Source: a virus (lineage: Duplodnaviria; Caudoviricetes). From it: a stretch of DNA of 64,000 nucleotides. The position numbers were made by a program, and so were the translations under genes. Positions 6,578-51,500 of the stretch are shown here, one piece after another. The notes below the pieces were generated by a model. The model did not search any database, was not told where the DNA came from, and saw only the letters and a program-made list of their open reading frames with translations. Positions within the stretch are counted from its first letter, which is position 1. Each line of letters opens with the position of its first letter. Location of the stretch: the IMG/VR virus record IMGVR_UViG_3300037400_003286; one strand, given 5' to 3'.

Positions 6578-7339
6578 TTAGCTGTTTCTCATTTCTTCAA
6601 ATATGTTATATAACTCATTGTGTTTGTCCATTACTTCATTCGCAAGTTCAGAACAACCTTTTCGAATCCAGTTTTTGACACTTGCAGAAGAAACCTTATT
6701 TTCTTCAGCAATTGTATCAACCTTCTTCTGATTTATATATCTCTCTTTCATAACGATCCTCAAATGATCAGGAAGATAATCCATACATTCTATGGATGCG
6801 TCGTATATATCAGATAACACCTTTGATTTTGTATATGTCTTGAACTCTCCACCGTTAAACGACATATTTTCGATCTCCTCGTCAGAGAACATATCATCAA
6901 ACAAGCATCCTTCATCAGATGATACTATTCTTTCATGAACATCTGAAAGATCTATATTTACTGTGTTTATCTTACTCTTATACCCACCAGACCTGAAATA
7001 TGTCACAGCATCATTATGTGCAATCCTATACATCCATGTTGAAAACTTACCAGCATCATCCTTGAAACTGTCTATTCTGAAATAAACATGTTCCATCGTT
7101 ATACTCAGTATGTTTTCAGTATCTTCCTTGCTTCCTGTCATACCGTAGATATAAGTCCTAAGCCCCCATGAACATCTTTTCATAAGAGCATTGAAATTTT
7201 TCTCACTATGGTCATCAATGAATCTCTGAGCTAGAAGCTGAATATCCTTGTTTTCTTCCTGAATCTTCTTCTTTTTCTCAGCAGGATCTACAACATGACC
7301 AGGATTAAATATACTATTTTTGGACATAGGCTCGCTCAT
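6578..7339 (-). CDS. RNA polymerase sigma factor, ECF-like (sigma70 regions 2 and 4)
   Basis: Region-2-like FNALMKR..SKEDTENIL..GKFSTWMYRIAHN; region-4-like LPDHLRIVM..TIAEENKVSSASVKNWIRKG. Confidence 0.85.
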   Translation of the reverse strand: MSEPMSKNSIFNPGHVVDPAEKKKKIQEENKDIQLLAQRFIDDHSEKNFNALMKRCSWGLRTYIYGMTGSKEDTENILSITMEHVYFRIDSFKDDAGKFSTWMYRIAHNDAVTYFRSGGYKSKINTVNIDLSDVHERIVSSDEGCLFDDMFSDEEIENMSFNGGEFKTYTKSKVLSDIYDASIECMDYLPDHLRIVMKERYINQKKVDTIAEENKVSSASVKNWIRKGCSELANEVMDKHNELYNIFEEMRNS

Positions 7340-31940: not shown

Positions 31941-33668
31941 ATGGCTCCTAGAAAAATACTTAAAAGCGGATCTACATCAACATTTATACCTGGAGGTACT
32001 GGATCTTCTGGAACCAGGGCTGGTGTGACATTTTACGGCTCAAAATCTCAAGATACACAAACATCAAACACAATAACATTTAAATTAAATAACGAAAACG
32101 TAACAATAGATAATCAATATGGAAATATATTAAATCCAGCAATAAATGATTTTATTGTTTATGCTGATAACAATATAACATATTTGTTATCGATTGTTGA
32201 TATATTAGAAAGTGTATGTTATACTAATGTTGTTGATTCGTGGAATACTCAATCACAGTCATCTGGTCAGCAGCAAACAGACATATCAACAATATCTTTG
32301 GATATTGCATGTAATGCTTCAGATAGTCAGGATTATATAGGATATAAAAAATTTATATCAACATCAGTAATCTCTGATATTAATAATCTAGAAACAGCAG
32401 AATACACTGGAACAAATGATATAAATGTATTAAAAATGCATTCATCTTGTGCATTTACATTTACAATATCATCAATTAATGAATATCCTATAGGAAATTA
32501 TAAAATAGTTATAGAATTTATAACGGATTGGTCTTCACCAGCTATGGATACAAGAATAGCTAAAAAATTTCAAACTCCAAAACTATATAGTGGATTAAAT
32601 GAATATGATGAAGACGATGAAGTAACTCAATATCAAACTTTCAGAGGATATTTTTCTAATTATTCATGTAAAGGAATAAGCAATGACGACGCATATACAG
32701 ATATATGTTCAGAATGTGGCAATACTGTTAAATTCATGTTAAGTAACGGTAAGATGATAACATCTTGCCCAACATGTAAAAATGTCGTTGTTCTCGATGA
32801 TTTAAATCCAAAAAATGCATCCGAAAATTTTGATGATGAAAAATTGGATAATTTTGTTATGACAGTTAAAGATTACAACCAAGGTATTGGTAATATGTCA
32901 TATAAATCAACAATATATATTCAAAAAGATGTTATTATAAATGCAATCGAGAAGAATCATCCATATAAATGTAACATGTATATTTACGTTAATGGTATAA
33001 ATGGTTCAAAGGAAAAGGTTTGGATGAGAGATTTATCAACACTTATTAACAATACTGTTAAATTAAGTGACAATGATATATACGATGATTATAAATCAAC
33101 ACAAACAGATGGTGGTTCAATCATAATACCAGAGGAACCAGACTTACCTATCATTATACCAGATATTACAACATATCCTGGAACTAGACACGCTGGACAA
33201 GATTCTAATATGATTTATCTCTATAATACATCAGAATCTTTACAGCCACGTCGTGCTCAATTTGTAGAAGATGAAGATATTCTTATAGATGATGATTATG
33301 TTCAAAATGATCCAGATACATTAATGTCATATAACGACAATGTATATGTTGATAATATAACGATTCAGAGATTTGCTGGTGCAAATAACTGGTGTAAATG
33401 TACATATGATGCAGCAACACACACAGTAACATATAAAGCTCTTTCTCAAAACCCAACAACATCAGTAAGAAAAGCTTACTTTATACACACAACAACGGAT
33501 GAAAGACTTGCTAGAGGTCCTCATACTGGTGATCTTGCTATGTCGCAATGGACTGTTACAGTACAACAAGCAGCTAAAGCTAGTTCTAGTAGTGGAGGAG
33601 GTGGAGGAGGACACGTACAACCATATGTTAGGATAGAAGATAATGATGATATATATATTATTGAATAA
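31941..33668 (+). CDS. Putative tail fibre/adhesin with zinc ribbon and C-terminal BACON-like domain
   Basis: PGGTGSSGTRAG N-terminus; CSEC..CPTC; W..N..R..VTVQQ pattern typical of BACON. Confidence 0.55.
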   Translation: MAPRKILKSGSTSTFIPGGTGSSGTRAGVTFYGSKSQDTQTSNTITFKLNNENVTIDNQYGNILNPAINDFIVYADNNITYLLSIVDILESVCYTNVVDSWNTQSQSSGQQQTDISTISLDIACNASDSQDYIGYKKFISTSVISDINNLETAEYTGTNDINVLKMHSSCAFTFTISSINEYPIGNYKIVIEFITDWSSPAMDTRIAKKFQTPKLYSGLNEYDEDDEVTQYQTFRGYFSNYSCKGISNDDAYTDICSECGNTVKFMLSNGKMITSCPTCKNVVVLDDLNPKNASENFDDEKLDNFVMTVKDYNQGIGNMSYKSTIYIQKDVIINAIEKNHPYKCNMYIYVNGINGSKEKVWMRDLSTLINNTVKLSDNDIYDDYKSTQTDGGSIIIPEEPDLPIIIPDITTYPGTRHAGQDSNMIYLYNTSESLQPRRAQFVEDEDILIDDDYVQNDPDTLMSYNDNVYVDNITIQRFAGANNWCKCTYDAATHTVTYKALSQNPTTSVRKAYFIHTTTDERLARGPHTGDLAMSQWTVTVQQAAKASSSSGGGGGGHVQPYVRIEDNDDIYIIE

Positions 33669-33673
33669 AATAA

Positions 33674-33700
33674 AAAGGTTGGAATTATTTTCCAACCTTT
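33674..33700. terminator. Bidirectional intrinsic terminator
   Basis: AAAGGTTGGAA-N5-TTCCAACCTTT at convergent gene ends. Confidence 0.75.
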
Positions 33701-34650
33701 CTTTTTTGTTCAAGGAATCTATGAAAGACATCGAATACATTCTGTCCACTTGCTGATATAAACAGCGTATGTCTTGAATTCTTCTTATCAACAAGCACAT
33801 CCTTCATCTTCAGTCCGATATATGTAAATGGATTGTTCTCGACATATTCTGTAAGTTTTATCATCTTGTCACAATCCTTCTTTCTCCATTCATTATCATC
33901 CCAGGAGTATCCAGAATATGTCTCGTTGGGTGGTACTGTCTTTACACGGGTTCCTATGTTGTATTTCTGTGGCTTCAATTCATCGTTCACTTCATAGTCT
34001 GGAAGATAAGTGTATGAAAGCATATACAAGCTTTTATAATACTCAGGACCAGCATAATCGATATAGCAGCAACCTATAAGGCAATCATCAACATGATCCA
34101 CACCATCACGAAGTTTCATGTTCCAATCACTATAAAGGAATTTCATTGCATTATCCAGAATACCTTTCATTACGTTCTTATCGAAAATCATAAGATCTCC
34201 ACGAGCATAAAGGTCATCACAATATGCGCAGTTCAAATTTACATAACTGTTAAGTGCGTTACCATACATACTGTTCGGTTTGAATGTCGCAATAGCGGCA
34301 TCAAGAAGATCAATATTCAACCACATAGAAATATTCATACGAACATACCAGTCACACTCATTATTCCTATAAATGTAATCAAAAGCCTTTATTGACTTCT
34401 CGAATGTACGATAAATGCTTTCTTCCTCCTTAACCTCAATAAATTTAAGGTTAGGATATTTTGTTGAATCTGAAACCTTTACTTCCTCTTCCATTCCTTC
34501 ACCACCAGACCAATAGAAATAGAAGTCGTATTCATGCTTAAATCTTTCCTTGTGTTCATTCTGATACTTTACGAGTGTATTCTGTATAGCATCAAGATTT
34601 CTTGTGGACGGCTCTACATTAGCAGCCATCACCATAATTGCAATCTTCAT
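33685..34650 (-). CDS. Glycosyltransferase-like protein (GT-A, GT31/galactosyltransferase-like)
   Basis: KIAIMVMA start, EKSIKAFDYI...DWYVRMN, YARGDLMIF, VDDCLIG pattern. Confidence 0.6.
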   Translation of the reverse strand: MKIAIMVMAANVEPSTRNLDAIQNTLVKYQNEHKERFKHEYDFYFYWSGGEGMEEEVKVSDSTKYPNLKFIEVKEEESIYRTFEKSIKAFDYIYRNNECDWYVRMNISMWLNIDLLDAAIATFKPNSMYGNALNSYVNLNCAYCDDLYARGDLMIFDKNVMKGILDNAMKFLYSDWNMKLRDGVDHVDDCLIGCCYIDYAGPEYYKSLYMLSYTYLPDYEVNDELKPQKYNIGTRVKTVPPNETYSGYSWDDNEWRKKDCDKMIKLTEYVENNPFTYIGLKMKDVLVDKKNSRHTLFISASGQNVFDVFHRFLEQKRKVGK

Positions 34651-39852: not shown

Positions 39853-42089
39853 TGGGTGATGACGATAAAATTTACAACGGTGGAAGTATTAATGAAGTAA
39901 CAGTTACTGGTACAGCACCTGCTACCGATGTTAGTAGAGAACAAGAAAAATTCATTAACGAAGGAAGAATGAATCTATTCGATACAAGATTGTATCGAAC
40001 TCTTGTGCTATATAATGAACAGATAAAACATGATCAGGTATTCTATCCACACTTCGACTATGGTTCATATGTCATGGACTTCCATGAAACAACAACCTCT
40101 GTCGAAAGAATGATCGAGGAAACTAATGAAAAAGAACAGCCAAAGGTTAAACAAGGTCTCGAAAAAAGAAAAGATTATATTGACACGTTTGTTAAAGAAA
40201 ACGAAAACAAATATCTTGCTGCTCGTTCATTCATTCACCCTTATGCTCTTGTTAGACTTGCTGGTGCTCATGGTAGTCCAAATGTTGTAGCAAAATTCTT
40301 AACATACGACCAATATAACAAAAGAAGATTCTATGAAATTGATGGTGATCCAGAATATGCTGGAAATTATTCAAGAACACCTACAACAACCACACTTATA
40401 AAATGGGGTAATGAATCAGAAAGAGGAAAGACACCATATTCTTTCCAAGATTTTGTATTCTGTAAATGGTGGAATAAAATAGAAAACAATAGAATGATAA
40501 CGCTTAGACGTTATGCTGCACCAGTAACAGATAATATAGAATTCTCAGATTATGTTGTAAGTGAAGCAGCTTCAACTGGAGATGATAGCGGAACATTTCA
40601 AGTAACCGTAAAAGAAGGTGACAGAGAAGTAGTTAAGAATTATTCTGGTAGAAACAGTACAAACCCTTGGACACCTCTTGCTACAGCCGTTACATATTTC
40701 GGAGAAGGAACTGGAAATGATCTATCTGATATAATGACATTCAGTGCTCACTACAACTGGGCTGAAGTAAAAGCTGAAAAATCTCCTATAGATATAACAG
40801 CACAACAAAATGACGCTGGTAATGGATTAGTTAGTGATGACTTTAGTGGAATATCAAGTGGTCTTGGTACTATAGCTAAATTTATGGGATTCTTAGGTGA
40901 AGCTACAGGCGGAAGAACCATTAATCTTGATGGCGCTCCAAATAACGTTCCACCAGATCCTTATAAAGACGGTCCATACGAAAACAGAATTCTCGGTCCA
41001 ATAAATGTAATAATGAATACAGTAAGACGTGAAAGAGGACTTGAATTCAAACAGGATGGATTGAAAATTACATTCGATTATGTTGCAAGACCTATTGCTG
41101 GTATAAACAGCAAGGCTGTATTACTTGACTTAATGTCAAATATTCTTATTCTTACATATTCTTCTGGCTCGTGGTTTGGTGGTATGTGGAGATTTAAGGC
41201 TATGGGAAATCCAGCCGTATATCCCTGGAAATATGGAGATGCAATGAATAAACTTTATCGTGGTGAGATTTTTGGTAAAAACGGTGCTGTAATGACACTT
41301 ACAAAACACGTATTCTCTGATGGTAAGAATTATCTTTCATCGTTCCTTCCAGATGCAGCTAAATTCATTTCAAACTTGTTCAAAGGAGCAATTGATGCAA
41401 TATACGGAGTTATTACTGGTAAGGACGAAAGAACACAAAGAGCAGCAATAGAGTTCCAAAATGTATTGGGTACTGGTACAGCCAAAGCTATTCAGAAAGT
41501 TATAGCAGCTAAAGCTATGAAAGGAACAACAGTTCCATACATTCAAAATCAAAGAGCTTTGCTTACTGGTGAACCTGTTGGTGACTGGCATTTAACAATA
41601 GGAAATCCTCTTAATCCAATAGCAATGATAGGAAACCTTATCGTCAAGGATGTTACTTTTAAATGGAGTAACGAACTTGGCCCAGATGATTTTCCTATCG
41701 GATTCACAGCAGAGATAACATTAGATCACGGATTAGGACGAGATAGAGATGCAATCGAATCAATGTTCAACAGAGGTTTCGGTAGAATCTATACACTATC
41801 AAAACATTTCAGATCGTCAGCAGACGGAGAAACTAAAGTTGATGCTTATACTGGTGGACAGAACACTAAAAACGGACGTGTTAAATATAATGAAATAAGA
41901 AGCACATATTTCGGTGGCGGAACTAGATTCATAGCTAAGACACAACATTCAGCACTTAGAAATACTGGTGTTATATACACTGGTGCAACAAATGATATAG
42001 CATCGTTGAAACCAACCAACACAATAATGTCAAACCAAACAGTTTCGTCATACTATGTAAATACTTGGCAAATGGGTATGAATATGTAA
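39852..42089 (+). CDS. Putative baseplate/tail-tube junction protein
   Basis: 745 aa; first gene of the baseplate cluster; exact family uncertain. Confidence 0.45.
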   Translation: MGDDDKIYNGGSINEVTVTGTAPATDVSREQEKFINEGRMNLFDTRLYRTLVLYNEQIKHDQVFYPHFDYGSYVMDFHETTTSVERMIEETNEKEQPKVKQGLEKRKDYIDTFVKENENKYLAARSFIHPYALVRLAGAHGSPNVVAKFLTYDQYNKRRFYEIDGDPEYAGNYSRTPTTTTLIKWGNESERGKTPYSFQDFVFCKWWNKIENNRMITLRRYAAPVTDNIEFSDYVVSEAASTGDDSGTFQVTVKEGDREVVKNYSGRNSTNPWTPLATAVTYFGEGTGNDLSDIMTFSAHYNWAEVKAEKSPIDITAQQNDAGNGLVSDDFSGISSGLGTIAKFMGFLGEATGGRTINLDGAPNNVPPDPYKDGPYENRILGPINVIMNTVRRERGLEFKQDGLKITFDYVARPIAGINSKAVLLDLMSNILILTYSSGSWFGGMWRFKAMGNPAVYPWKYGDAMNKLYRGEIFGKNGAVMTLTKHVFSDGKNYLSSFLPDAAKFISNLFKGAIDAIYGVITGKDERTQRAAIEFQNVLGTGTAKAIQKVIAAKAMKGTTVPYIQNQRALLTGEPVGDWHLTIGNPLNPIAMIGNLIVKDVTFKWSNELGPDDFPIGFTAEITLDHGLGRDRDAIESMFNRGFGRIYTLSKHFRSSADGETKVDAYTGGQNTKNGRVKYNEIRSTYFGGGTRFIAKTQHSALRNTGVIYTGATNDIASLKPTNTIMSNQTVSSYYVNTWQMGMNM

Positions 42090-44349: not shown

Positions 44350-46320
44350 ATGGCTATAACAGATCAAATATTAGGAATGGATGGTGGAGGATATGGTAAT
44401 ATCCTTAGTTCTGTCGGAAATATCGCTGGAAGTGCTGGAAGTATAATCAAAAAGATTAAAAGCCTCAGCGGTAAAGAAATGTCAGTAGGTGCTATAAGAG
44501 ATTATAACACTAACGGATTCCTTGCACAAAATAGTCTGTTTATACCAGAGTTCTTTGCAAGAGCGTTTGACGAACCAACATATCTGTCATTCAGGGTTGA
44601 ATTTATGTTCAATGATCCAGAAATGACAATAAGAAATACAGCATACAACAACCAGGGTATCAAAAAAAATGCAATAAGAACTGCGTTTTATGGTCAGATG
44701 TATGACTATATGCCAGAGCCTTTCCTGAATGATTTCTTTACAAGGGACGGTAAAGGTGCTATGACACCAACCGATACTTCTGTTGGTATATTGTATTCAA
44801 CAGAAAATTATCTTGATTTCAACCTTGGTGATCACGGAAGAGCTATGCTTCTGCATACATTCAAACGTGCATTAAAGGATATACAGGAAAACTTCCCTTA
44901 CTATTTCAAATCACTAAGCGGTATCGATACATTAACATCAATAAATCCAGAGGAAGGTATTCGTGTAAAGGAAGGTGAAATTATACTTGAATGTATGGAA
45001 GGTCTTGATCTTAAGATAACACAACTCCTTCAACTTTATAGAAAAATCGTATGGGATGACGTTTATCAAAGATGGGCATTACCTGATATGATGAGATTCT
45101 TCGGAATGAGAATATACGTTTCAGAAATAAGACTTTTCAGTGATGTCAAAAAAGAAAACGATTCACCTGAAGCATTAGATTTCTCTGATGCTGGAATCAG
45201 AAATATGACTTATCGAGGACAGGCTGAATCTGGTGGTGGTGGATTCTTGGGATTAGTAAACAAAGGTGCAAGCATATTAGGAAATGCAACAGCCGTATCT
45301 CAGTCTTTCTTAGGTACAAAAAGCGTGATAACAAAGGCACTTAACTATACATCTGGTACTGTCAATACAGCACTCGGAGCATATAATTCAATAGCTGGTG
45401 CTCTCAACCAACTTGAATATTGCAACAACGCTATAAATGAAGTGATGCCAACATTATGCTTTGAATGTCATATGTGTGAATTTGACATTAAAGATACATT
45501 ATCACATATAGCAGACTTAAGTTCATCAAACCAGGATACATCTTCACCAAAACCAAAAATAAAGATTAAAGTCGGTCAGGTAAGAGAAAAACAGTCATAT
45601 CCACTGAATGCAACATTGAAAGCTGGAAAGAACGGTTATATGAAAACCGTCATTGATAGAATTGATGAAGATGGTCAATTAGAAGGTACTTTAATCAATA
45701 TACACGATTTTGGACCTTTATTCCAAGCCAGAGATGGTAAAGCAGCATTTATGGGCAATTTCCTTAATGATGACGTGCTCAATAAGAAATATTTCCATAA
45801 AGGAATGGGTGATAGACAGAGTGATTACCTGTATAACCTCAGCGAGAATGTCGGTCAATCAAAAGCAAACACGATAAGTGTAAGAAGATTACCAGACAAT
45901 CTTGAAAATGATATGGATAAGATGAGTTATATACCTGAAAATTCATCTCAAGGTGCAGCACAGGCTGGTTTGTTCTCTACAGTAATGAATGAAGCTGTAT
46001 CAATAGCGTCACACGCTGGAGTAGGAAGTAATATAATCGGAACAAAGAGTCTTGCTACCGATCCTCAGAAAGAACAGGTTGAAACTATGGAAGCAATCGG
46101 AGAAATGATGAATGCAGCAGTAGAAAGAATATATAACGGACCAGAAATGAAATCTATGGCAGCACAAGGTGTATCAGATTCACAGCGTGCAGCAATAGCA
46201 AATAATTCGTTTGCTGCTTTCATAGATGAACTTGAACTTTCAGCAGCAACATCAGACGATTACTACATGAAGGAATTCCTCAGAAACTATCGTGTAATCA
46301 AAAACGAAGAACAACAGTAA
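44350..46320 (+). CDS. Putative baseplate/tail-tube-fold protein
   Basis: 656 aa within the baseplate cluster. Confidence 0.45.
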   Translation: MAITDQILGMDGGGYGNILSSVGNIAGSAGSIIKKIKSLSGKEMSVGAIRDYNTNGFLAQNSLFIPEFFARAFDEPTYLSFRVEFMFNDPEMTIRNTAYNNQGIKKNAIRTAFYGQMYDYMPEPFLNDFFTRDGKGAMTPTDTSVGILYSTENYLDFNLGDHGRAMLLHTFKRALKDIQENFPYYFKSLSGIDTLTSINPEEGIRVKEGEIILECMEGLDLKITQLLQLYRKIVWDDVYQRWALPDMMRFFGMRIYVSEIRLFSDVKKENDSPEALDFSDAGIRNMTYRGQAESGGGGFLGLVNKGASILGNATAVSQSFLGTKSVITKALNYTSGTVNTALGAYNSIAGALNQLEYCNNAINEVMPTLCFECHMCEFDIKDTLSHIADLSSSNQDTSSPKPKIKIKVGQVREKQSYPLNATLKAGKNGYMKTVIDRIDEDGQLEGTLINIHDFGPLFQARDGKAAFMGNFLNDDVLNKKYFHKGMGDRQSDYLYNLSENVGQSKANTISVRRLPDNLENDMDKMSYIPENSSQGAAQAGLFSTVMNEAVSIASHAGVGSNIIGTKSLATDPQKEQVETMEAIGEMMNAAVERIYNGPEMKSMAAQGVSDSQRAAIANNSFAAFIDELELSAATSDDYYMKEFLRNYRVIKNEEQQ

Positions 46321-50197: not shown

Positions 50198-51223
50198 ATG
50201 AAGAAGAAAACTGAAGAGGATTTAATGAGTGCATATGTTGCACAAGAGGAAACTCCTGTGACACAGAGTCCTTTTAAGGAAGCAAAGGTCGAGGTTGTAC
50301 AGCAGCCAGATGAGCCGCAAGTACCTCAGAAGACTATGGCTGAAATTGCTAGGGAAAACAGAACTCACGGTAAGGAAGGAATGCCTTTTACTGGAAACGG
50401 TTCTGGATTGAAATACAGAGACAACATCGGTTGGCTCAAGATTGACGTTAAGACACTTCCTACACAGGGACTTTTCTATCCAGACGGAATGGAAATCAGT
50501 ATCCGTGCTGCAAGAGGTGAGGAAATCAAGCACTGGTCAACAATGAACGATCAGGATATTAACCAGCTTTCAAGGGTTGATGATATTCTTAACTATATGA
50601 TCGAGAAATGCTGCAACGTCAAGAATCCTAACTATCCTGGAAACTGTTGGAAGGATTTGAAGAATGTTGACAGATTCTATATTCTTCTTGCAATCAAGGA
50701 GTTTACTTTCATCGATGGTGAGAATGAACTTATGGTTCCTATTTCTGAGGATAAGCAGATTCCTGTCGTAAAGGAAATGATTGACTTCATCAAGATTCCT
50801 GAAGAGATCATGAAGTTCTACAATCCAGATGAGAAATGCTTCATTTTCAATATCGCTGGTAATCCTATGAAGATTCATGTTCCTTCTCTCGGTGTAAACG
50901 ACTGGCTGAAGAAATATGTAGCACAGAAGATCAATGCTAAGGAAGGATATGATGAGGACTTCATCACATATGCTCCTATGCTTATCAAAGACTATCGTGG
51001 ATTAGGACAGAGAGCATACGAGGAAATGGTCGGTGCTTCACGTCTTTGGAATGTGAAGGAATGGTCTGTACTCGCTTATGTAACGGAAAAACTTGGTGGC
51101 GCAACTGAGCCTAAGATTAAATATACTAACGAGGATGGTGGGGAAGTGGAAATCCCCTTAACCTTTCGCGGAGGTATCCGCTCTCTTTTCGTGCTTTCAA
51201 ATCCGCTACTCTCAATATGTTGA
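50198..51223 (+). CDS. Baseplate hub assembly chaperone (T4 gp26-like)
   Basis: LPTQGLFYP..ISIRAA..EI..; DLKNVDRFYILLAIKEFT. Confidence 0.7.
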   Translation: MKKKTEEDLMSAYVAQEETPVTQSPFKEAKVEVVQQPDEPQVPQKTMAEIARENRTHGKEGMPFTGNGSGLKYRDNIGWLKIDVKTLPTQGLFYPDGMEISIRAARGEEIKHWSTMNDQDINQLSRVDDILNYMIEKCCNVKNPNYPGNCWKDLKNVDRFYILLAIKEFTFIDGENELMVPISEDKQIPVVKEMIDFIKIPEEIMKFYNPDEKCFIFNIAGNPMKIHVPSLGVNDWLKKYVAQKINAKEGYDEDFITYAPMLIKDYRGLGQRAYEEMVGASRLWNVKEWSVLAYVTEKLGGATEPKIKYTNEDGGEVEIPLTFRGGIRSLFVLSNPLLSIC

Positions 51224-51500
51224 ACTGGAACTGGTGTTCGCAATGAAGCTTAACATCAGTCCTATCGAAATGGGACAGATGTACTTCTATGACATAATGA
51301 TGCTTTATAACAGATATGAAGCATTCTTGAAAGACGAGAAGGAAGCTCAGGACAAACAACAGGCTGAATACGAGGAACAATATGGAAATCCGCAGGATCA
51401 ATATTCAAATATACAAAGCCAGATTTCACAGGCCACAGCAAAGATGGGTTCTTTAACACCAAGCTCTATAACAAGCGGATTTAATTTTCCTAAATTCTAA
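51162..51500 (+). CDS. gp51-like baseplate assembly ORF, probably reached by +1 frameshift from the gp26-like gene
   Basis: Frame is open from 51162 (PFAEVSALFSCFQIRYSQYVELELVFAMKLNISPIEMGQMYFYDIMMLY...) and overlaps the end of the gp26-like gene. Confidence 0.6.
   Translation, partial: PFAEVSALFSCFQIRYSQYVELELVFAMKLNISPIEMGQMYFYDIMMLYNRYEAFLKDEKEAQDKQQAEYEEQYGNPQDQYSNIQSQISQATAKMGSLTPSSITSGFNFPKF

Follow-up and report, generated by a model that had tools for sequence, protein, structure and literature searches.

Comparative evidence for a programmed +1 frameshift at a C_UUU_C site predicted to give a phage gene two products

Results

Two overlapping reading frames at one locus

The 64,000-nucleotide (nt) stretch of viral DNA analysed here, referred to throughout as the window (IMG/VR virus record IMGVR_UViG_3300037400_003286; Duplodnaviria, Caudoviricetes), belongs to a giant gut phage and carries on its plus strand an open reading frame (ORF), ORF1 (50198..51223), that encodes a protein of 341 amino acids (aa) and ends in a TGA stop at 51221–51223. 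A second ORF (ORF2) overlaps the end of ORF1 in the +1 frame. We propose that ORF1 and the +1 ORF downstream of it together form a single gene that yields two products, much as the G/GT tail assembly chaperone genes of phage lambda do, and we hold this explanation as a whole to be probable. That the two frames are joined by a programmed +1 shift at a TTT_C tetranucleotide near the end of ORF1 appears very probable from the comparison of homologous sequences, which strongly supports both the existence of two products and the place at which the slip occurs.

The ORF1 frame at 51152–51169 reads ATC CCC TTA ACC TTT CGC and contains the putative shift site ACC_TTT_CGC (51161..51169, plus strand) with the core C_TTT_C at 51163–51167; codon 323, which supplies the TTT, is the first in-frame TTT_C in the window's ORF1. 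One codon before the slip site, the TTA_A of Leu321-Thr322 creates a TAA of the +1 frame (51159..51161), and about half of the homologues have a +1-frame stop (TAA or TGA) at the same position. From 51162 onwards, the +1 frame stays open up to a TAA at 51498–51500, and reading ACC_T as one step yields a fusion without any stop. The predicted fusion has 323 + 110 = 433 aa, and its +1-frame part (51168..51500) comprises 110 aa plus the TAA. In the dual-coding overlap (51168..51223), which has a dual-coding part of ~55 nt, the short form's conserved tail is specified by the zero frame, whereas the +1 frame specifies a short variable linker followed by the start of the conserved ORF2 domain. The first GTG of the +1 frame is at 51234, 11 nt past the ORF1 stop, and its first ATG (51243..51245) lies 81 nt after the frame opens and 20 nt past the ORF1 stop.

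The composition of this region is unusual, with a GC content of 48% in 51140–51245 compared to 34% window-wide, a value that ranks among the highest 0.5% of all 106-nt segments. Of the 670 Arg codons in the ORFs of the window, 7 are CGC, two of them within the overlap; TGA terminates 3 of 43 window ORFs, and TTT_CGN occurs only twice in ~20,000 codons. The original prediction for this DNA, made from the letters alone, had described the frames, the +1 TAA at 51159, the opening at 51162, the first ATG about 80 nt on, the GC-rich overlap with two CGC codons and the uncommon TGA, and all of these were confirmed. Its proposal of a +1 shift at ACC_UUU_CGC that generates the 341-aa protein and a 433-aa fusion is now backed by the comparative data. 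A 20-codon open +1 stretch is within chance for one sequence, but its retention in every homologue is not; the case rests on the comparison with relatives.

The downstream domain is always in the +1 frame

We compared 52 viral and 54 metagenomic loci with those of four cultured phages, namely Flavobacterium phage MaF61, Chryseobacterium phage MA9V-2, Tenacibaculum phage PTm1 and Sphingomonas phage PAU. A match to ORF1 at 44% identity was found in Prevotella Lak megaphages as well. The downstream domain was found in the +1 frame at each of the 69 distinct junctions taken from IMG/VR and metagenomes, which share 19–96% identity in the C-terminal part, as well as in 4/4 cultured phages and 7/7 further marine loci (~80 distinct junctions overall). 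The retention of one relative frame over this range of identity indicates that the two ORFs are not independent genes. The +1 frame opens 44–176 nt upstream of the ORF1 stop and extends 157–469 nt past it. Two loci, L030 and L097, seem truncated, with +1 ORFs that end 64 and 169 nt past the ORF1 stop, and a third, L058, has a premature TAG (near 2530) three codons ahead of the usual ORF1 stop; the short +1 ORFs and the early stop may represent damaged copies or assembly errors.

We detected no homologue in which the two parts are fused in frame. Among the 262 ORF1 homologues detectable in a word-indexed collection, the best 120 were examined for length, and all had at most 376 aa (most 324–376 aa). 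Similarly, the best 150 ORF2-domain representatives were all at most 196 aa long, and no fused form was present among the 238–758-aa proteins that share words with the ORF2 part. The zero frame is itself under constraint in the overlap: the C-terminus IPLTFRGGIRSLFxxSNPLxxIC is conserved to the stop in 20 homologues, and the last 18 residues of ORF1, RGGIRSLFVLSNPLLSIC, are conserved and present in the short form only.

The +1 domain lacks a start of its own

Alignment of the +1 translations gave a domain consensus of approximately LFSLFQIPY-x5-IELVFA-x-KLHI-x-P-x-E-x3-M-x-FYDI, and beyond this core come a long charged helix and, at the C-terminus, an F/M-x-x-P-K/S-F tail (F-x-x-P-K-F type). 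The domain begins inside the overlap, where its overlap-encoded start in the window is LFSCFQIRYSQYV. An AlphaFold model of the +1 product is helical over residues 11–70 with block means of the predicted local distance difference test (pLDDT) of 82–96, and the overlap-encoded residues score 82–93. In three clades (L019/L096/L097, L026 and L090–95), the LFKIPY motif is located past the ORF1 stop, after a variable linker, still in the +1 frame and with no consistent start. These non-overlapped copies indicate that the +1 peptide encoded in the overlap elsewhere is real protein rather than a by-product of zero-frame conservation.

One alternative is that of two ordinary genes, in which ORF2 starts at GTG 51234 or at ATG 51243 and the +1 frame is open upstream of this start by chance. 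The location of these codons 11 and 20 nt past the ORF1 stop would suit such an arrangement, as would the separate small ORFs listed in the GenBank entries of relatives. However, the conserved xIELVFA and LFSLFQIPY elements precede ATG 51243, which is placed inside the conserved domain, 7 residues after the domain crosses the ORF1 stop. This ATG occurs in the closest clade only, and the residues aligned with it elsewhere are L, F, K, Y or H, so that a check for a conserved independent start of ORF2 found none. In many loci (e.g. L019, L021, L022 and L024), ATG, GTG and TTG are all absent upstream of and within the first part of the domain. A search of 1.8 billion representatives with the +1-domain profile retrieved 627 clusters (50% identity), and the best 150 of these (70–196 aa) have called starts spread from −89 to +37 of the profile (126 positions), a scatter of the kind that gene callers yield when the real start is missing. 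Independent initiation would also leave unexplained both the +1 relation at every junction examined and the invariance of TTT described below. We therefore regard two ordinary genes as improbable.

The annotated small 'hypothetical protein' genes that follow the ORF1 homologues in the four cultured phages, at 6899–7036 in PAU (L110), 6899–7021 in PTm1 (L109), 6866–7042 in MA9V-2 (L108) and 6839–7009 in MaF61 (L107), all begin at internal Met codons and omit the first 20–40 conserved residues of the domain. They have the appearance of trans-frame product fragments that were annotated wrongly.

Synonymous sites mark the probable slip position

We used a codon alignment of 70 ORF1 cores and calculated the normalised synonymous entropy per column. 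At Phe323, the slip site, TTT and TTC are used 64:0, whereas four control Phe columns have ratios near unity (30:32 at Phe 93, 36:31 at Phe 171, 36:28 at Phe 215 and 26:34 at Phe 255), so that no synonymous change at TTT was found in any of the 64 sequences; the ratio at Phe331 is 5:63. The base after the Phe323 TTT is C in 62 of 64 sequences and T in the other two, and this TTT is preceded by C in at least 54 of 70 (AAC 24, ACC 23, TCC 5), with Asn and Thr codons of other final bases nearly absent. Elsewhere in the 70 cores, C_TTT_C occurs only twice. Synonymous entropy is 0.5–1.0 over most of the ORF1 gene, and around the slip site it is 0.90 at Pro320, 0.94 at Leu321, 0.0 at Phe323, 0.83 at Gly325 and 0.88 at Gly326. 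It declines again from Ile327 onwards (0.51, 0.39, 0.38, 0.0 and 0.2), indicating that the constraint from dual coding and the +1 domain begins there.

The only three lineages that lack Phe323 (L006, L030 and MA9V-2) have instead TTT_CGA, TTT_CGA and TTT_CTA, respectively, at Phe331, eight codons downstream. In L006, a +1 TGA lies between the old and the new position, and hence only the Phe331 site is usable. TTT_T within T-runs is found at the site in two distant clades, including one marine clade with seven T. TTT_C or TTT_T is thus present at all junctions examined.

The codon that follows the slip site is also distinctive in the Arg clade, which includes the window. It is CGA in 26 sequences, although CGA makes up 1% of the Arg codons elsewhere in those genes, and 26 of the 60 CGA codons of the whole alignment fall at this single position. 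In a further 7 sequences, the window among them, it is CGC, which accounts for 7% of the Arg codons elsewhere in those genes. A rare CGA or CGC after TTT would fit the classic hungry-codon arrangement.

Proposed mechanism of the shift

In the mechanism that we propose, most ribosomes would read ORF1 through to its TGA and produce the 341-aa protein. A minority would pause with tRNA-Phe in the P site on UUU (51164–51166) and the rare CGC in the A site, and the tRNA-Phe would then re-pair one base forward, exchanging UUU (wobble) for UUC (Watson-Crick). Translation in the +1 frame would resume at GCG (51168) and end at the TAA (51498). The resulting long form would contain ORF1 residues 1–323, with the 18-residue tail exchanged for a 110-residue helical extension (433 aa), and the short:long ratio would be set by the slip frequency. 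The P-site slip from UUU to UUC next to a slow A-site codon is modelled on known UUU_Y sites.

In bacteria, UUU_Ynn is highly prone to +1 shifts even when no stop codon is present, and the influenza PA-X site, UCC_UUU_CGU, has no evident stimulator and a low efficiency (PMC5009743). The efficiency here is probably low as well and intrinsic to the site, as no stimulator was found. No Shine-Dalgarno-like element was detected at a suitable spacing; the GGAGGT-like strings ~21 nt upstream stem from conserved Gly-Gly-Glu codons, and their spacing is not RF2-like. The site has no match in Rfam. A hairpin, GCGGA-GGTA-TCCGC (51168..51181, plus strand; followed by TCTCTTTTCG), starts one base past the slip site, which is too near for a classical downstream stimulator. 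It is seen only in the clade with CGC at Arg328, being absent where this codon is AGA or AAA, and is probably incidental. Given that the lambda G:GT ratio is ~30:1 (PMC5009743), shifting of a few percent would be enough for such a system.

A frameshift elsewhere or of another kind, for which we see little room and which we rate marginally below the two-gene arrangement, could involve a CTT_T (51182 or 51191, RF2-like), the TGA itself, a −2 shift or slippage of RNA polymerase. CTT_T sites are present in the window's overlap, and the seven-T run of the marine clade could in principle allow transcriptional slippage. Against this, codons 330 and 333 vary (CTT, ATT or GTT) across lineages, the codon before the ORF1 stop varies freely, and the dual-coding constraint begins at codon 327, upstream of the CTT_T sites. 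The three consecutive T in the window are too short for polymerase slippage to be likely, and a −2 shift is excluded because UUU cannot re-pair two bases back on CCU.

Least probable of all is a free ORF2 protein made from a non-canonical +1 start codon within the overlap. The annotation of T4 gene 26 offers a precedent, with a second product (26′) made from an internal AUU, and near-cognate codons such as ATC are present in the +1 frame (FQ-I), but no near-cognate codon is conserved upstream of the LFSLF motif, and the invariance of TTT_C, its relocation in three lineages and the rare CGA would all be unexplained.

ORF1 resembles the T4 gp26/gp51 family

Among the PHROG and Pfam families, the sole match of ORF1 itself is phrog_36717, a family of unknown function. 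Two homologues reach PF12322 (T4_baseplate) above its 24.5-bit cut-off, PAU gp93 with 33.9 bits and a metagenomic protein (L037) with 28.1 bits, and weaker matches that are colinear over profile positions 12–208 were obtained for L034 (17.5 bits) and MA9V-2 (13.6 bits). In addition, 4 of 21 ORF1 family members match phrog_150 ('baseplate hub'). T4 gp26 and gp51, which are mutual paralogues listed as hub assembly chaperones, are both strong members of PF12322. A direct profile comparison of ORF1 with T4 gp26 and gp51 was not significant. Membership of ORF1 in this family as a distant relative is thus supported only transitively, by the Pfam matches of intermediate homologues and by fold matches.

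The AlphaFold model of ORF1 (pLDDT 70, core mostly 80–93) matches the BFVD models of PAU gp93 and PTm1 with E-values of 1e-14, and those of a baseplate hub subunit, a hub assembly protein and a chaperone with E-values of 2e-6 to 1e-3 and template modelling (TM) scores (target) of 0.5–0.57, all of these being predicted structures. In a comparison with 48,161 PDB chains, the top three matches are all of the tail-assembly-chaperone type and cover model residues ~50–183: 3fgx_B (Z 5.8, root-mean-square deviation (rmsd) 5.1, 90 aligned), HK97 gp10 (2ob9_B; Z 5.8, rmsd 4.9, 86 aligned) and YqbN (3klu_A; Z 5.2, rmsd 5.8, 96 aligned). Foldseek found no match to the ORF1 model in the PDB. The weak resemblance of the modelled N-terminal domain to tail assembly chaperones is suggestive.

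The original prediction had named ORF1 gp26-like and ORF2 gp51-like. The first name holds by way of PAU gp93, the one metagenomic homologue and the BFVD folds, and not by a direct PF12322 match. The second is abandoned: ORF2 matches no family in Pfam or PHROG, the hhalign E-values against the gp51 family were 0.09–0.19, and gp51 is itself a PF12322 paralogue of gp26. A likeness between the ORF2 motif and the C-terminal domain of gp51 (KLHIxPxEMxxMxFYDI and KLLxNPDEIFxFYQI, respectively; E-values of 0.33 and 0.09) disappeared with richer profiles (hhalign, 181 vs 92 sequences), which gave an E-value of 0.19 over a different region. The ORF2 fold has generic helical matches only (best Z 4.7; Foldseek E-values above 0.3).

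Several further features of these proteins were observed. A CxxC motif (e.g. CPKCG) is located ~15 residues before the slip site, just upstream of P-L-x-F, in L034, L037, L043, L051, L103, MA9V-2 and PTm1. T4 gp51 also has a CxxC (CPKCKKE), and the window's clade has YTNEDGGE instead; a zinc-ribbon-like element seems to have been lost in this clade. Profile positions 199–267 of ORF1 (~50795–51000) weakly match polyubiquitin 5vix_A (E-value 0.0023), and the middle of ORF1 may be a beta-grasp-like domain. In precomputed annotations, homologues of T4 gp51 (P0121–P0212) carry a second, newer Pfam family, PF28602, on their C-terminal ~50 residues, a part that gp26 lacks.

Gene order and possible chaperone role

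In MA9V-2, the sheath gene is followed by a gene for a tube-like protein, two small genes, the ORF1 homologue, the +1 ORF and a gene for a 1082-aa protein that matches the tape measure family phrog_4372 (E-value 1e-6). In PAU, the order is sheath, gp91, tube (gp92, phrog_45), gp93 and the +1 ORF. The place of the pair in MA9V-2, between the tube and tape measure genes, is the canonical one of tail assembly chaperones, and its place after the tube gene in PAU agrees with this in part. In the window, ORF1 comes after a baseplate-like cluster, with a gp25-like gene at 42065 and a gp5-like gene at 46320, and small membrane proteins are encoded downstream. A 647-aa protein encoded upstream in the window is not detectably a sheath, and the window's weak tube candidate does not match the PAU tube.

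On balance, we lean towards a chaperone-type (G/GT-like) role, somewhat in preference to any other. In such a role, many short and few long copies would act on the tape measure or on a hub complex, a further tail component would be brought in by the extra domain and the F-x-x-PKF tail at its C-terminus, and neither form would be expected in the virion.

Points that weigh against the proposal

A number of observations count against the explanation offered here. The sequences compared are related, so that the counts overstate the number of independent events; the saturation of neighbouring synonymous sites argues against simple shared ancestry as the reason for the invariant TTT. At least one further in-frame TTT_C is present in 26 of the 70 ORF1 cores, and the tetranucleotide alone is therefore insufficient to define the site. 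One clade has the common codon CAA after the slip site (78% of Gln codons), which shows that a rare A-site codon is no general requirement; in further clades the codon is CUC, CUU, CAG or CCN. No conserved downstream RNA structure was found by RNAalifold in 39 non-redundant sequences, and single-sequence z-scores were ~0.

Other observations bear on function. The window's ORF1 matches neither PF12322 nor any other Pfam family, and its chaperone-fold matches are weak, with Z values of 5.2–5.8 compared to the Z of 8 advised for the tool. No tape measure gene was identified beside ORF1 in the window, and the chaperone role is one that we infer.

Discussion

Comparison with known recoding systems

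Like the G/GT tail assembly chaperones of lambda (Xu, Hendrix and Duda 2004; PMC5009743), the proposed arrangement would yield two products from overlapping ORFs by a shift near the end of the first. The MA9V-2 pair is directly upstream of the tape measure gene and after those of the sheath and tube, and the weak fold matches of ORF1 are to HK97 gp10, YqbN and 3fgx. The first ORF of lambda G/GT-type pairs encodes roughly 100–140 aa, whereas ORF1, of the T4 gp26/gp51 family, has ~340 aa. The shift proposed here is +1 at UUU_C, in contrast to the −1 shift on a heptamer in lambda; the short form has a private, conserved tail of 18 residues, with ~55 nt of dual coding; and the window's gene adjoins baseplate genes rather than an identified tape measure gene.

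As a site type, ACC_UUU_CGC is close to the influenza A PA-X site UCC_UUU_CGU and to the amalgavirus site UUU_CGN: P-site UUU is proposed to re-pair on UUC, UUU is preceded by C and, in the window's clade, followed by a rare CGN, and no stimulatory RNA structure is evident. The present system differs in belonging to a bacterial virus and bacterial ribosomes, in the next codon of other clades (CAA, CAG, CUC, CUU or CCN) and in the UUU_U of two distant clades. The UUU_CGN assignment made in the original prediction accordingly stands for the window's clade, with its rare CGN, and not for the clade with the common CAA; as the next codons vary across clades, the general rule here is of the bacterial UUU_Y type. 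Bacterial UUU_Ynn sites such as that of Yersinia YopN-TyeA (PMC5009743) share the tetranucleotide and the host domain and need no stop codon or Shine-Dalgarno stimulator. Unlike YopN-TyeA, the present site is conserved over a very large phage family and has a synonymous-site signature and an obligatory trans-frame domain.

With T4 gp26 and gp51, the ORF1 family shares the two members above the PF12322 cut-off and, in its distant members, the CxxC of gp51. In T4, the two paralogues (208 and 249 aa) come from separate genes without any frameshift, whereas the window's ORF1 has an extra N-terminal region of ~75 residues and has lost the CxxC, and ORF2 has no significant similarity to the C-terminal domain of gp51.

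Novelty and implications

Programmed frameshifts in tail assembly chaperone genes are known, with haloarchaeal HSTV-2 a likely +1 case (PMC5009743), and +1 shifts in structural genes have been reported for Listeria phage PSA. Full-text literature searches found no paper describing the present frameshift. New are the protein family, which is T4 gp26/gp51-like (~340 aa) and broad, the use of C_UUU_C as the type of site (resembling PA-X in one clade), and the 55-nt dual-coding overlap with a conserved tail private to the short form. The hub chaperones gp26 and gp51 are mechanistically obscure in T4-like and jumbo myophages, and the +1 recoding proposed for their family reaches across 627 clusters of the +1 domain at 50% identity, gut Lak megaphages and four cultured phages that are genetically testable, in which small 'hypothetical proteins' can be re-annotated as truncated pieces of the trans-frame domain. 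The family also provides an unusually clean natural data set on what makes UUU_C shift-prone on bacterial ribosomes, including those of Bacteroidota, which use little Shine-Dalgarno pairing; in three lineages the site moved by eight codons and its sequence was retained.

Frameshifted chaperones are a hallmark of long-tailed phages, and we know of none for T4-like phages. A broader idea, which we put forward tentatively and consider rather unlikely, is that the T4 gp26/gp51 family is the T4-type counterpart of lambda G/GT, with the two products made by an obligatory +1 slip at C_UUU_C in the jumbo phage and megaphage clade and by two paralogues in T4 (26 as the short and 51 as the long form). 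If this were true, T4-like phages would cease to be an exception to the near-universal chaperone frameshift, and gp26 and gp51 would have a testable role.

Shift-prone sequences elsewhere in the window

A second C_TTT_C candidate, near the end of ORF 33685..34650 (minus strand; 33462–33800), has a long open +1 frame but was attributed to chance, because this frame runs antisense to a 575-aa gene, does not look like protein and comes after a terminator-like hairpin. In-frame TTT_C is depleted about two-fold in the ORF1 cores (7.4% vs 15.6%), and in the window 24 occurrences were observed compared to ~47 expected. Similarly, 63 of the 382 TTT codons of the window are followed by C or T, compared to ~124 expected from codon first-base frequencies. 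This depletion of TTT-pyrimidine may reflect a general avoidance of the shift-prone tetranucleotide or mere codon-pair bias.

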